Source: Prorocentrum cordatum
Lineage: Eukaryota
Reading direction: 5' to 3'
Assembly (NCBI GenBank): GCA_963575745.1
Contig: CAUYUJ010000166.1
Span: 1-64,000 of the forward strand
DNA length: 64,000 nucleotides
Made by a program: the position numbers and the translations under genes. Numbering within the stretch: position 1 is the first letter of the stretch; every line of letters begins with the position of its first letter. This document shows positions 41,275-62,439 of the stretch, one piece after another. A model generated the notes under the pieces. It was not told the origin of the DNA. It did not search any database and saw only the letters and a list, made by a program, of their open reading frames with translations.

Positions 41275-44237
41275 TCCAGGACGGCAGCCGCAAGGAGGGC
41301 ACGAAGCGCTACGACGGCTCCGGCAGGCCGCGCCTGCACGTTCTTTTCTTCGCGGACGACGACGCCATGGCGAACGTGGGATTGGGGCATCACCTCTTTG
41401 CGACCAAGCCCGACGGCTTCTCGGACGACCTGAAGGGCTATGTGGACGGATCGCAGCTAAACAAGCACGGCGACGCAGAGAGCAAATGGCCGATCTGCCA
41501 CGGCCCGTCGGGGGTGCACGGCGACGATGGTGTCCTCCAGCTGAAGCACACCGAGGAGGACCACGACGCGGGCCTCCGAGCGTACTGCGCTGACGTAATG
41601 GACGGGCTCCCTTGCCATCAGGACTGGCAGACCAGCGACGGGGAGGCCATGCTCCTGCAATACGTGTCAAAGTATGTGGCGAAGTTCTCGGACAGCAGCT
41701 ACGACGAGTGGATGAGCGACAAGGCCTCCGCGGACAGCGTGGCCAGGCGCGTCTGCTTCGAGTACCACCCCAACGAGCCAGAGATGATCCTGCAGCTGTG
41801 TGGAGCGCAATTCAGACAGTACGACATCTCTACGGTCAGCGGCGGCTTCCGCACCGTGACGGCGCCTTACTCGGGCATGGCGGATGTGCCCGACTGGGTC
41901 CAGAGGTATGTTGACTGCTCGTGGCGCCACGAGGGCATGGCGCTCTTGGAGTGGCTTCGGAAGACTACTGACGACGGCGCCATCGCTGGATGGCTGAAGC
42001 GCAAGCACAAGCAGGAGCTGGTGTTGGCCCTGCACAGGCGGTGCCGCGCGACCTTGCCCGAGGGCGAGGAGCCCCGGGCGCTCGACGCTCACTGGCGCTT
42101 CCTGCGCGCTGAGTACAAAGGCATGGCCGATGCTGATGGCGGAGGTAGCGGGAACAGTGACGAAGCCTCCGGCGCCGAGGACGAGGAGCAGCCGAAGACC
42201 TTCGAGGAGTTCCTCGCGAAGAAGCACAGAGACGAAAAGAGCGAGGGCGAGGACGACTTTCCGAACCTCAAGGAGTTCGCGCGAGCCTTCCGCATGCAGG
42301 GCGAGAAGGTGGTCAGCGTCGACACGGTATACGAGCTCAACGACCGCTACTACGGCCAGTGGGCTGCAATGAACGTGCCGTTCCGATCGCTCGACGAGCT
42401 CGAGTTCGAGGATGTCAATCGCCTGGTTCCGCAGAAATACAAGTATCTCGCGGCGGCGCTGCGACTGTGCTCTGACCAGGGCCGCGTCGCTGAAGGGCAC
42501 CATGACTTGTTCACCGATGACAGGCGGCTCGTGGACTACATGAGCGCTTCCGCGAAGTCAAGCAAGTTCACGGAGGCTGTGCATCGCATGATCGTGGGGC
42601 AGCGGAAGCTGATCAACATGTACCTGACGGGCATCATCGACAAGGCCGACGAGAAGGCCGCGGCCGACGTCGAGGCCGCCGTCATCGGCAACCGCAGGCC
42701 AGCGCGCGACGAGGGCCAGGAGGAGGTCGACTTCAACCCGAAGCAGCTGCAGCTGGAGGAGGCGATCAACGAGCGCGTGGACCGCGCGGTGCGGGCAGAG
42801 CTGTCGGAGGAGTGGGAGGAGGCCGGCGAGGCGCGCGAGGAAGCCTACAAGAAGAACACGCCCGTAATCTGCTTAGGAAAGCCTGGAACTGGGAAGACCA
42901 CCGTGGTAAAGTTCTGCATTCGGCGCGCCCAGGAGCAAGGCGCGCGCGTGCTCTTCGCCCTCCCGACGGCGCAGCTGTCCAGCCGCATGAGAGCCGCGCT
43001 GCAAGACCTGGAGGGCCTAACGGTGGACACGTGCCACGCCGCATTCAAGCTGCACGATCCAATCACAGAGAGTCTTCACAGGATGACGGACTTCGACTTG
43101 GTGGTGGTTGACGAGGTATCGATCTGTTTTTGCGCTCTCTTTTTTTTTTCTTTTGCTTTTTGACTTTGTTGATTTTTTTGTTGTTTGCTTTTGTTCTTTT
43201 TTTTTTTTCTGTTGATGAAGTGCGAAAGCTTCGAGCGCATCCTGAAGCTCTGGAGCGTCGCGGGGAAAGTCCCCGCGCTGGTCTTCCTCGGAGACAAGCA
43301 CCAGCTCCCTGGGGTGGAACCGTCACGTCCTTGGGAGAGTGCCGCATGGAAGCGGCCGCGCTGTTTCCACGTGAAGCTCACCGAGACCTGGCGGTGCAAG
43401 GAGGAACGCTTCCAGGAGATCCTGGACGAGCTTCGGACAGACAAGCCCTCCAAGGAGACGTTCCGCAAGATCGTGCGCGACCACAAGGCGTGGAAGAGCA
43501 GTGGCGACCCCACGCCCGCCGAAATGAAGAAGCTCTTCGAGAAGCACCCAGACACGCGGATCGTCACCTGCACGCGCAGGGGCGCTGCGGCCGTGAACGA
43601 AGCGGCAGTCGCTGCGCTGTGCGGCCGCAAGACCCCGCTGGCCAGGCTGAACGGCGACGTGGAACTCAACCCCGAGAACTACCTGGATGGCAAGCTTCGC
43701 ACTGATCGCCGTCTGGTCCCAAGCAGAGTACCGATTCACAAGGGAATGCAATTGTACCTGACGAAGAACAATAACAAGGAGGCCGACGAGGTGAATGGCA
43801 TGCTTTGCGCGGTGGAGAACTACCGCGCCGAGGAGGACATGCTGCGCGTGATGACGAAGACGGGCCACCGTCTGGCGATCACTCGCTGGACCGACCGCGA
43901 GAAGGGCAATGCGGTCTACTTTCCGATTCGTCTCGGCTGCGCCAGCACCATCGACAAGGTGCAGGGCGACGAGTTCCCCCACATCGCGATATACCTGGAC
44001 GGGTGGCCTAGACCAGCAGCGGGATATACAGCGCTCAGCCGCGTTGCAACGTCGGATGATTACTTGATCGGCGGCTTCGTGGAGCGCGACAACTTCATGC
44101 CCGCGTTCTGGGATTGCCGACGGTGTCCGCGCGTTGGCTGGCGCGCGACCGCTTGCCTCTCGCAGTATCCACGCGGCGCGCCTGCCCCGCTGTCGCGTGC
44201 AAAGGCACGAACGTGCGTAGTCCTGCTAGGAAGATGA
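41275..44237 (+). pseudogene. RepHel-1: Helitron2/Helentron-like HUH endonuclease fused to PIF1-family SF1B helicase; 5' part lost in gap
   Basis: QDGSRKEGTKRYDGSGRPRLHVLFF (degenerate HUH, 41331), YVSKYVAK (41661), YYGQWAAMNVPFR, GKPGTGKT, VVVDEVS, LGDKHQLP, TETWRC, PIRLGCASTIDKVQG, YTALSRV; broken by a T-rich insert at ~43126-43210. Confidence 0.88.
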
Positions 44238-44802
44238 TGGTGTGTCAGTGCCACGTCGGGGAAGGGAAGGAAAGCAGAAGGAAGGGCATACGTAGAGATT
44301 GTCTGACGTTCTCGACACCCCTGGAGTTTCGAGACGGCGGGGAGGGGGAGCGCGAGGGGGCGGGTCAGGCGCCCCCTCGTACATGGCAACGGAAGGCGTC
44401 GTGTGATGCCCTTCGCGGCGGACTGCGCAGTGCGAGAGGGCGCCGGGCGCGTGCCCCTCGCGCTCCCCCCCGTGAAACCCCGTGGGACTTGACAAACGAG
44501 CTCCTGGAACTCCTCGGCTTGCTCTACGAGGTCTTGGGCGAATCGCTTGGGTCCGCGGAGCCGTTCGGCGCATCTGCGTCGCTTTTTTTTTGTCGCGTCC
44601 CGTTGTTCTGCTAGATGCACCAGCAAAGCACCAGAGCATAGCCGAAGAAGCCGCCGGAGGCAGAACGTTCTGCATGGCACACCAAGAAAGCCCAAGGGGC
44701 CGCCGTAGGCGTATCTCCACGTGCGTTACGCTCCCCAGCACAGCCAGAGAGGCCGCCGCAGGCGTGTTTTCACGTGTAAGGCAGTCCCCAGGGATGGGAC
44801 CT

Positions 44803-45100
44803 ACCTGGAAGCGCTTGGGAGCGCCAGGGAGCGCCGGGGAGCGCTTGGGAGCTTGCCGGGAGCGCCTGAGAGCGCCTGGGAGCGCCATGCGCCTGGGTGC
44901 ATTGGGAGCGCTTTGGAGCGTGCCGAAAGCGCCGTTGAGCGCTTGGGAGCGCCTGGGAACGCTTGGGAGCGCTGGAGAGCGCCTGGGAACGCTTGGGAGC
45001 GCTTGGGAGCGCCTGGGAGCGCTTGGGAGCGCTTGGGAGCGCCTGGGAGCGCTGGGGAGCGCCTGGGAGCGCTTGGGAGCGCCTGGGAGCGCTTAGGAGC
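44803..45100 (-). repeat. 10-bp satellite (GCGCYTGGGA)n
   Basis: Reverse complement of the (GCGCTCCCAG)n arrays at 45950-47695 and 60868-61665. Confidence 0.9.
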
Positions 45101-45410
45101 CTCTGGGACGTGCGCCAGCCGAAAAAACGCCGCATACTGTGGTTTGCGGCCCCACGGACGGCCGAAAGGGCGCCGCATGCTGTATTTTCATAGGTTTGGA
45201 GCCCCGGGGGATGTAGGCGCGCGCAGGGGAGCCACTGGCTGCGCCTAGGGTTAAGGGTTCTATTCATTTCTCGGAGCACTCACAGGGCATCCCCGCGGGG
45301 GAGCGCATCCTCCTCAGCGCTACGCGCTTCGTCGGTGCGGCGTGCGCGCATGGGCGGACTCGCTGATCGCTCGGCCAGGCGCCGCGGGCTTCTGACGATG
45401 CACCGCCCGG

Positions 45411-45445
45411 TTTAGGGTTTAGGGTTTAGGGTTTAGGGTTTAGGG
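45411..45445 (+). repeat. (TTTAGGG)5
   Basis: Five perfect units. Confidence 0.97.
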
Positions 45446-61626: not shown

Positions 61627-61658
<32 letters not shown>

Positions 61659-62003
61659 CCCAGCGCCAGAGCGCTCGCCGACGCCATTTAAGGTCGCCAG
61701 GGCGCTCGCCGACGCTATTTAGGGTCGCCAAGGGCGCTCGCCGACGCTAATTAAGGTCGCCAGGGCCGCTCACCGGCGCTATTTAGGGTCGCCAGGGACG
61801 CTCGCCGACGCTAATCAGCGTCGCCAGGGCGCTCGCCGACGCTATTTAGGGTCGCCAGGGGCGCTCGCCGACGCTAATTAAAGTCGCCAGGGCCGCTCGC
61901 CGACGCTAATTAGTGTCGCCAGGGCGCTCGCCGACGCTATTTAGGGTCGCCAGCGCGCTTGCCGACGCTATGTAGGGTCGCCAAGGGCGCTCGCCGACGC
62001 TAA
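60244..62003. repeat. Inverted 31-bp satellite, 10-bp satellite, forward 31-bp satellite
   Basis: (tagcgtcggcgagcgccctggcgaccctaa)n 60244-60868; (gcgctccccg/cag)n 60868-61665; forward 31-mers 61670-62003. Confidence 0.92.
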
Positions 62004-62317
62004 CCTTAACCTTGACGCGTGGGAGCCTCTGGGACCCTAAGGATGCGAGGGGCCCGTCGCCGAGGGTTTGGGGTTAATATAGAATGACAGGGTCGCCAAG
62101 GGCGCTCGCCGACGCTAACCTTAACCTTGACGCGTGGGGTCCTCTAAAACCCTAAGGATGCGAGGGGCCCGTCGCCGAGGGTTTGGGGTTGATACAATAG
62201 GAGGTTGACACCTCAGCTTCAGCGGCCCCATCAGCACCAGCGTCCGCTGACCGTGACGTCCGTGACCTTCAGCGTCACGCGCGTCAGCTCGCGCGCGCCA
62301 AGCCAAGATGCGCGCGG

Positions 62318-62439
62318 TTAAGGGTTTAGGGTAGGGTTTAGGGTTTAGGGTTAGGGTTAGGGTTAGGGTTAGGCTTTAGGGTTAGGGTTTAGGATTTAGG
62401 GTTTAGGGTTTAGGGCTTAGGGTTTAGGGTTTAGGGTTT
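62318..62439 (+). repeat. Telomeric-like tract
   Basis: TTTAGGG/TTAGGG mixture. Confidence 0.96.

Follow-up and report, generated by a model that had tools for sequence, protein, structure and literature searches.

Helitron-like elements stacked head to tail between telomere repeats in the dinoflagellate Prorocentrum cordatum

Targeting of telomeres by a DNA transposon was, to our knowledge, unknown before a 2026 report on Paramecium. SART/TRAS of insects are telomere-repeat-specific non-long-terminal-repeat (non-LTR) retrotransposons that move via RNA with a reverse transcriptase, and the Y' units of yeast are subtelomeric, helicase-encoding tandem units that lie between short telomere tracts, lack an HUH nuclease and spread by recombination. 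HUH nucleases cut and join single-stranded DNA through a tyrosine link, the established chemistry of their class. The Paramecium work describes a third Helitron-like clade in Paramecium aurelia ('HLE Paramecium'), the elements of which are found at the ends of germline chromosomes, inserted among C4A2 telomere repeats (Arnaiz et al., BMC Biol 2026; PMC13085455). According to that paper, the left end of the elements points outward without exception; a short telomeric stretch always follows the right end; satellites, among them a pyrimidine tract and a mosaic one, are numerous within the bodies; derivatives without an open reading frame (ORF) are abundant; ORF orientation varies among clades; and the authors favour the C-rich strand, since C-rich repeats follow the right end. 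The paper also outlines how HUH nucleases and the Helraiser transposase cut and join single strands via tyrosine (PMC13085455). Here we describe an array of Helitron-like elements separated by telomere repeats in a 64,000-nucleotide stretch of Prorocentrum cordatum DNA (hereafter, the window; assembly GCA_963575745.1, contig CAUYUJ010000166.1, positions 1 to 64,000, forward strand). The first-pass annotation of this DNA had considered such an association undescribed for Helitrons, a claim that falls with the Paramecium elements, at least as these are presented in print (PMC13085455). Telomere-inserting Helitrons are not categorically new, and dinoflagellates are a second, distantly related protist group; our literature search turned up no report of telomere-associated Helitrons from dinoflagellates.

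Five (TTTAGGG/TTAGGG)n tracts, all with the G-strand on the plus strand, cut 40230-64000 of the window into head-to-tail units (Table 1). The 14-mer TTTAGGGTTTAGGG has 19 matches in the window, all on the plus strand and all within 40230-63625, against 0 matches in 100 shuffles; a motif count found none in 1-40229. From left to right, the units are A, which is a RepHel element (HUH Rep plus Pif1-type helicase); B-na, which has no ORF; B, a second coding unit; and the non-coding C, followed by the start of a further unit, C'. Tracts T1, T3, T4 and T5 (at least 11 units each) have TTTAGGG beside the elements and mostly TTAGGG in their interior (for example, 777xx6666...667x77); T2 and the tracts of the related loci described below are almost pure TTTAGGG. 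The similarity between B-na and B is confined to their ends (91% identity over 123 bp at the 5' end and 92.5% over 318 bp at the 3' end), and the shared end block closes with a 9-bp GC stem, GCGCGCACC/GGTGCGCGC, followed by GG and then the tract. The 3' junctions of A, B-na and B (45410, 48302 and 62317) all read CGG/TT. B-na relates to B as an ORF-less derivative with the same ends, a feature by which Helitrons are recognized. The shared 5' motif and 3' block, the GC hairpin ahead of the tract and the common CGG/TT junction had all been recorded in the first-pass annotation and are borne out here, as are its tracts at 45411, 48303 and 62318 and the head-to-tail order; it had missed the two outer tracts (40230 and 63554) and overlooked both an N gap within unit A and a partial end block inside unit B.

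On the plus (G-rich) strand, units A and B each carry coding sequence for a Rep-like part together with an SF1/Pif1-type helicase, as had been proposed. In unit B, the HUH motif reads GRPHVHALLF and the two-tyrosine motif YVAKYVPKFSD; in unit A, the HUH motif reads R-L-H, with arginine replacing the first histidine. The two proteins are approximately 35-37% identical (E = 2e-34 for Rep and 1e-46 for the C-terminal half of the helicase), and A and B are anciently diverged members of a single family that sit next to each other. Relatives were collected by an exhaustive protein search with P0004, the unit A frame that holds the Rep, which returned 950 at E ≤ 1e-3 and 177 at E ≤ 1e-30, and by a scan of JGI metagenome contigs, which yielded 41 loci encoding relatives (L001 to L041; 279,273 bases). 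The relatives seen with a species name were dinoflagellates without exception: 3 of 10 looked-up clusters (Polarella glacialis, Symbiodinium sp. and Durusdinium trenchii) and 5 of 33 proteins, including one from Prorocentrum cordatum (83% identity over half the query) and others from Symbiodinium sp. CCMP2592 and S. necroappetens.

The helicase was readily assigned, and the Rep part is remote from known families. Pfam searches of the window proteins at E ≤ 0.01 matched helicase and P-loop families only (including AAA_30, AAA_19 and PIF1) and no Rep family; at E ≤ 1, 13 of the 37 family members gave a weak match to Helitron_like_N (best E, 1.1e-3), and 6 of 37 matched a rolling-circle Rep family. 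A profile of 18 members, searched against the PDB, found Pif1 helicase structures (1e-19 to 1e-21) and the helicase part of Helraiser (8e-10), and neither the Rep part of Helraiser nor any other Rep. For the Rep structure predicted from 37 sequences (pLDDT, 70.6), the sole significant PDB match was the Helitron transposase 7lcc (Helraiser; E = 6e-5, 260 columns, TM 0.42 by query); adeno-associated virus (AAV) Rep and plasmid RepB came next with non-significant E values. The conserved alignment motifs are FxTxAPYExSFPYH, RLEFQDGxRK...YHGSGRxHxH and LLxYVAKYxxKFSDS, with HUH and YxxxY kept across the family alignments, and in 16 of the 41 related loci HUH, YxxxY and Walker A occur in a single ORF (the longest is 1918 aa, approximately 5.8 kb). 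We read the family as a remote Helitron-type RepHel on the strength of these profiles and the predicted fold; the Helitron-like identity given in the first-pass annotation is upheld by the Pif1-type helicase profile, the 7lcc fold match and the terminal hairpin.

The telomere association recurs in these relatives. Tracts of at least three telomere units were found in 9 of the 41 loci (10 tracts in total), and eight of these tracts, in seven loci (L003, L006, L016 with two tracts, L018, L026, L032 and L036), have the G-strand on the gene strand. Counted as single-unit clusters on the gene strand, TTTAGGG occurs 56 times and CCCTAAA 12 times in the 41 loci; 133 control 7-mers of the same composition gave a mean of 14.3 (standard deviation, 8.5; maximum, 40). 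Part of the TTTAGGG excess arises because internal satellites hold one telomere unit per repeat, like the 31-mers of the window. Another satellite, with TTTTAGGG units, lies right before the tracts of L006, L016 and L026. On a Rep tree of 36 rows (leaving out the short-match loci L031, L035, L036, L037, L038, L040 and L041), tract-bearing rows are scattered and occur in both of the deepest branches (6 of 13 rows in one, 4 of 23 in the other). Twenty-two loci extend to the helicase C-terminus, and among the eight with at least 1.7 kb past the helicase a G-type unit lies 1.0-1.6 kb downstream in four (L004, L016, L023 and L028); L003, with 1.1 kb past the helicase, has one at +966. At the DNA level, the window units had no match to the 41 loci (E ≤ 1e-20, at least 400 bp). 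The telomere association that had been claimed for the window is real, and it recurs in independent contigs from other samples across a large dinoflagellate family.

Besides the anatomy of the elements, the protein families that they encode and the telomere tracts at element ends in other samples, we observed the same end with different neighbours. L003 and L004 share 89% identity across 4.7 kb, as far as the GCGCGCACC/GGTGCGCGC hairpin of unit B; past the hairpin, L003 has three telomere units and L004 approximately 1.5, and then unrelated DNA follows. The 195 bp before the tract of L018 have counterparts in L028 (92%) and L023 (75%), where they lie 1.2 kb past the helicase. All three (in L018, the upstream element) finish with ...CGCCTG; telomere units come next (5 in L018, 1.7 in L028 and 1.6 in L023), and then unrelated DNA. 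Such a shared 3' end, with a varying number of telomere units and unrelated DNA beyond, agrees with a mobile element whose landing sites are telomere repeats. Downstream of L028, L004 and L023, further telomere units are scattered as in an old tract split by small insertions. L018 contains a 3' end, a 22-bp tract and then the 5' end of a full element with an upstream gene (ORF1; see below) and an 1821-aa RepHel ORF; L016 has the layout of the window, its RepHel unit being separated by a 28-bp tract from a unit of 2.4 kb, after which comes another tract of 172 bp. Joints at short tracts (21-35 bp) are unlikely to be assembly joins, because a sequencing read is longer than such a tract. The array neighbours A, B-na, B and C are different families, which rules out rolling-circle concatemers.

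The junctions keep a common register. A full TTTAGGG opens 13 of 16 element-to-tract junctions (5 in the window and 11 in the related loci), the rest starting with TTAAGGG, TTTTAGGG and TTAGGG; in the other direction, 11 of 12 tract-to-unit junctions finish ...AGGG, the following base is T in 10 of 12, and five units start TGT. The tracts therefore comprise whole numbers of units. The 9-bp GC stem stops 2-5 nt short of the tract in B, B-na, L003 and L004, GC hairpins also occur at the 3' ends of L018, L028 and L023, and a strong hairpin lies 12-17 nt inside many of the 5' ends. The canonical ends of HLE1 (5'-TC...CTRR-3', between A and T) are not seen; instead, the ends are (T)GTCCCC...GCGCGG between ...AGGG and TTTAGGG. 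As the flanks are tandem repeats, a target-site duplication of one unit would look the same as none.

We propose, with a probability of roughly 0.55, that the array is a stack of elements of a dinoflagellate-wide Helitron-like family that integrates strand- and register-specifically into TTTAGGG repeats. A full element consists of a short 5' leader with a subterminal hairpin, ORF1, RepHel, long satellites (some with single TTTAGGG units) and a GC hairpin within a few bases of the 3' end. Rep would cut and rejoin one strand of the element, and this strand would be inserted where ...AGGG meets TTT... in the repeats, always with the same orientation and register, such that the G-rich telomere strand becomes continuous with the gene-sense strand. 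The G-rich telomere strand is single-stranded in the 3' overhang and as the lagging-strand template. If new copies kept landing in the tract next to an older one, head-to-tail arrays spaced by whole repeat units would result, and ORF-less copies would ride on the same ends. Integration in preference to end addition, the use of this strand and a chromosome-end location are our inferences.

Several observations weigh against this proposal. Both RepHel genes of the window are damaged (A by the arginine and in-frame stops, B by a frameshift and an interruption), and from their reading frames neither copy looks able to move alone; the first-pass annotation, which had placed an HUH Rep and PIF1 in both coding units, did not note this damage, and its pairing of an autonomous with a non-autonomous element is sound for the ORF-less unit, which shares both ends, and weakened for the large, frameshifted and interrupted copy. 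The C-rich strand is on the gene strand, that is, in the opposite orientation, in L001 and L005. No G-type unit was seen in four of the eight loci with at least 1.7 kb past the helicase (L005, L022, L029 and L035), and a clade of seven rows (L017, L033, L021, L022, L024, L025 and L027) has no telomere units, even though L021 offers 10 kb of upstream flank and L022 6.6 kb of downstream flank; in this clade, the telomere habit may have been lost or never gained. The energies of the hairpins stand out from shuffles in only 7 of 15 cases at the 3' ends (z ≤ -2.4), and at the 5' ends z ≤ -3 was reached in only 5 of 11 (B, L018, L026, L036 and, on the reverse strand, L001); the 5' hairpin of B-na is identical to that of B, yet scores z -1.1. 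As hairpins occur on both ends, the 'left' end is not assignable with certainty and the G-strand polarity rests on gene sense alone. No empty site, insertion polymorphism or circle junction was seen, and one telomeric joint, in L032, is as compatible with end addition as with integration.

In that joint (L032, 11801-12083), telomere repeats are joined inside the helicase ORF at ...LLGDFWQLPFANKDAA and run for at least 120 bp to the contig end, whereas L026, 77% identical to L032, reads on past this point; it looks like a broken element healed by telomere addition. Capping of this kind is what one would expect if the arrays had grown by end addition, with the 5' end of an element, held by Rep, joined to the free 3' OH of the telomeric G-overhang at the extreme tip of the chromosome and the 3' end re-capped by telomerase, so that the array would document one terminal addition after another, in the manner of HeT-A/TART in Drosophila. 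Two further features would suit this explanation: every tract of the window presents its G-strand on the 3' side of the element, read along the gene-sense strand, and the three RepHel-family ends finish in GG, which telomerase could extend. We nevertheless think it rather unlikely: L004, L023 and L028 have approximately 1.5 telomere units and then unrelated DNA, the single register of 11 of 12 tract-to-unit junctions would need an overhang with a fixed last base, and TTTAGGG edges around TTAGGG cores are not predicted by simple extension by one telomerase.

Two further explanations appear improbable to a similar degree. Amplification of a subtelomeric array by recombination (break-induced replication or unequal exchange via the tracts), like that of yeast Y' and without transposition, could account for head-to-tail, helicase-encoding units between interstitial telomere repeats and for the satellites and duplicated end blocks. 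It does not sit easily with related copies that share an end and differ in their neighbours right after 1.5-5 units, with an ORF-less unit that has only its two ends in common with the coding unit, with neighbours from different families within one array or with nuclease motifs kept in long ORFs (16 of 41 loci). The telomere-like units could instead belong to the element, which would carry a few TTTAGGG units at one end or both and land anywhere, the long tracts arising later by slippage or telomerase seeding. The number of units, which ranges from 1.5 to more than 90 between copies, speaks against this, as does the DNA past L028, L004 and L023, dotted with telomere units as in a decayed tract; on the other hand, at least ~1.5 units follow every 3' end examined, even before unrelated DNA, four window tracts of at least 11 units have TTTAGGG edges and TTAGGG cores, and TTTAGGG units occur inside the internal satellites. 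An assembly artefact, in which separate chromosome ends were joined via their common telomere repeats, is suggested by the N gap and palindrome at 40856-41274 and is hardly credible given that T2 is just 35 bp and that element–tract–element arrangements with 21-28 bp tracts occur in the independent metagenome contigs L003, L016 and L018.

On the published description, the dinoflagellate elements resemble those of Paramecium (PMC13085455) in most of their architecture: RepHel elements with telomere repeats of one polarity on both sides and a fixed orientation, a stem-loop near the right end followed by a telomeric stretch, head-to-tail stacking, satellite-filled bodies (B-na has a 100-nt pyrimidine-rich tract and mosaic 31-mers), ORF-less derivatives and an alveolate host. 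Repeats of one polarity on both sides were seen for B-na and B; in L016, a tract follows the RepHel unit and another follows the next unit, and in L018 and L026 a tract precedes the element. The differences, as far as that description goes, are that the repeat is TTTAGGG here and C4A2 in Paramecium, that the RepHel ORF is at most 1918 aa here (41 loci) in comparison with 9-10 kb, that a separate conserved ORF1 precedes RepHel here and, if the ends are assigned correctly, that the gene-sense strand with the 3' hairpin continues into G-rich repeats here and into C-rich ones in Paramecium (PMC13085455). G-rich repeats are on the gene-sense strand for both window genes and in 7 of 9 loci; the difference in strand polarity is uncertain, because both ends have hairpins and ORF orientation varies among the Paramecium clades. 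The family looks like a variant of the published telomere-inserting Helitrons, set apart, on the descriptions, by another host lineage, a plant-type repeat, an apparently opposite strand and two genes.

Other systems are less similar. The RepHel of Symbiodinium microadriaticum has been placed at the base of Helitron2/Helentron, according to the published passage on it (Heringer and Kuhn 2021; PMC8788227). As far as Helitron2 (HLE2) is characterized in such accounts, the present family shares with it an HUH Rep with a Pif1-type helicase, hairpins near both ends and a dinoflagellate host, and likewise no AP (apurinic/apyrimidinic) endonuclease was seen here; it differs in having telomere-unit flanks instead of a T/T or T/C dinucleotide (the downstream flank mostly starts TTTAGGG, unlike a simple T/T site) and in matching Pfam Helitron_like_N only weakly. 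SART/TRAS and HeT-A/TART, the latter being chromosome-end retrotransposons of Drosophila in the account that we cite (PMC6581046), are likewise chromosome-end-repeat specialists with a fixed orientation and head-to-tail arrays, but use a reverse transcriptase; none is present here, where the enzyme is a single-stranded DNA nuclease-helicase. Yeast Y' shares the tandem helicase-encoding units with short telomere tracts between them, whereas here nuclease motifs are conserved and exact common ends have differing neighbours. Helitron-derived DNA also accumulates at chromosome ends in the cnidarians Hydractinia and Nematostella, as local amplifications of subtelomeric Helitron-like repeats (PMC11934779), and in the telomeres of Drosophila biarmipes, as dead, randomly oriented fragments (PMC6581046); in the relevant parts of these reports, they are not described as telomere-repeat insertions in a fixed register.

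If our proposal is true, a second, protein-divergent family would mean that the telomere habit is no ciliate oddity. It would also provide a natural contrast between G-rich and C-rich repeats for how an HUH nuclease selects a telomere strand, and would bear on the organization of the ends of the very large, nucleosome-poor dinoflagellate chromosomes. A more far-reaching version, which we regard as speculative, is that dinoflagellate chromosome ends are built up, and perhaps partly protected, by a dedicated two-gene Helitron-like lineage. Its nuclease would recognize single-stranded TTTAGGG repeats of the G-strand and insert the element with a fixed register and orientation, on the strand opposite to that used in Paramecium. 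Rolling-circle transposons specialized on telomeres would then either date back to early alveolates or have taken up this niche more than once. Intact long ORFs in the related loci make the enzyme accessible for cleavage and joining work on telomere oligonucleotides.

The full element comprises two genes, ORF1 and RepHel. Homologues of ORF1 lie upstream of RepHel on the same strand in L026, L018, L013 and L023 (22-24% identity; E = 3e-8 to 9e-6, relative to the small set of loci), and a database search found 28 ORF1 relatives with 46-98% identity to the L026 protein, with no Pfam domain for the ORF1 region among them. An ORF1 profile also matched upstream of RepHel in L034, L003 and L004, which are loci outside the profile build; weak matches downstream of RepHel in L029 and L030 were seen as well, and matches limited to the lysine/serine-rich tail may reflect low complexity. 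The ORF1 protein has a basic tail, and its domain was predicted with confidence as a helical bundle (pLDDT, 80.5) for which Foldseek found no match in the PDB and VIA-align only generic helical hairpins (Z ≤ 6.2).

Table 1. Features of the telomere-repeat array in the window (positions are those of the window)
Feature	Positions	Strand	Description
Tract T1	40230-40811	+	582 bp, mostly TTAGGG, TTTAGGG units at both edges
Post-T1 sequence	40812-41174	+	Directly after T1, abuts N gap; includes palindrome
N gap	41175-41274		100 N; interrupts unit A
Unit A (RepHel element)	ends 45410	+	Broken by N gap 41175-41274
Unit A RepHel gene	41277-44237	+	Rep from HUH region onward, then helicase
Unit A P0004	41277-43121	+	628-aa open frame; Rep from HUH onward and Walker A
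Unit A T-rich insert	~43122-43215		~100 nt; two in-frame stops; between DEVS and ESFERILKLW
Unit A P0001	to 44237	+	Helicase C-terminal part
Unit A 3' part	44804-45410	+	10-mer satellite 44804-45108, then unique end ...CACCGCCCGG
Tract T2	45411-45445	+	35 bp, (TTTAGGG)5
Unit B-na	45446-48302	+	No ORF; shares both ends with unit B
B-na 5' motif	45446-45567	+	With hairpin
B-na 31-mer satellite	45612-45953	+	Carries TTTAGGG
B-na 10-mer satellite	45952-47545	+	
B-na pyrimidine-rich tract	47545-47644	+	~100 nt
B-na second 31-mer satellite	47684-47984	+	
B-na end block	47985-48302	+	With terminal hairpin
Tract T3	48303-48534	+	Edges TTTAGGG, core TTAGGG
Unit B	48535-62317	+	Coding, 13.8 kb; 5' motif 48536-48658, end block 62004-62317
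ORF1 (P0002)	48800-50944	+	Conserved helical domain 49229-49927
Unit B tandem arrays	51482-53964	+	Between ORF1 and Rep; 280 bp x4, 334 bp x3.7
Unit B Rep domain	53809-55084	+	P0005, then P0006 after 1-nt frameshift near 54850
Unit B reading-frame interruption	55085-57485	+	2.4 kb; low-complexity repeats
Unit B linker and Pif1-type helicase	57486-59663	+	P0003; Walker A GPPGTGKS
Unit B internal partial end block	59967-60259	+	Truncated, without last 45 bp and terminal hairpin
Unit B satellites before end block	60242-62003	+	Inverted 31-mers 60242-60830, 10-mers 60864-61666, direct 31-mers 61664-62003
Tract T4	62318-62439	+	Telomeric
Unit C	62440-63553	+	Non-coding; initial 123 bp recur at 63629-63751
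Tract T5	63554-63625	+	Telomeric
Unit C' start	63626-64000	+	Continues past window edge

Unit A starts at the N gap, and its 5' part is therefore not readable; the sequence between T1 and the gap may be its 5' end. A near-perfect palindrome (94%, 320 bp, 40856-41174) abuts the gap and may be a true foldback or an assembly problem. A direct repeat, GTTGATGAAGTG, flanks the T-rich insert of unit A, which by this flanking repeat looks like an inserted intron-like element with a target duplication, and the interruption of the unit B reading frame may be an intron or an insertion. In an ESM Atlas search, the Rep part fell with bacterial REP_ORF2-G2P clusters only (0.93); the counts of shared features were low, and we treat this as no more than a lead. 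To the left of the array, 39985-40229 is the same GTC microsatellite as a (GTC)n block at approximately 40427-40446 within T1, which lies beside a run of four TTTAGGG units. Approximately 1.4 kb left of T1 is an FG-GAP-repeat gene (36702-38822; 168-bp tandem repeat, 6.9 copies), and nine other long ORFs tested in 1-40000 had no Pfam match.

The dinoflagellate telomere unit is TTTAGGG in the published statements that we draw on (PMC11453091, PMC11508785). The 31-mer satellites of B-na and B occur in several variants: one with a full TTTAGGG is TATTTAGGGTCG, and others read TAATTAAGG or TAATTAGCG in the place of TTTAGGG. In unit C', the 5' motif is followed (63745-64000) by repeats of 28-33 bp and 132 bp that are rich in GGGTCGGG and carry CCCTAA/CCCTAG units, the C-strand form.

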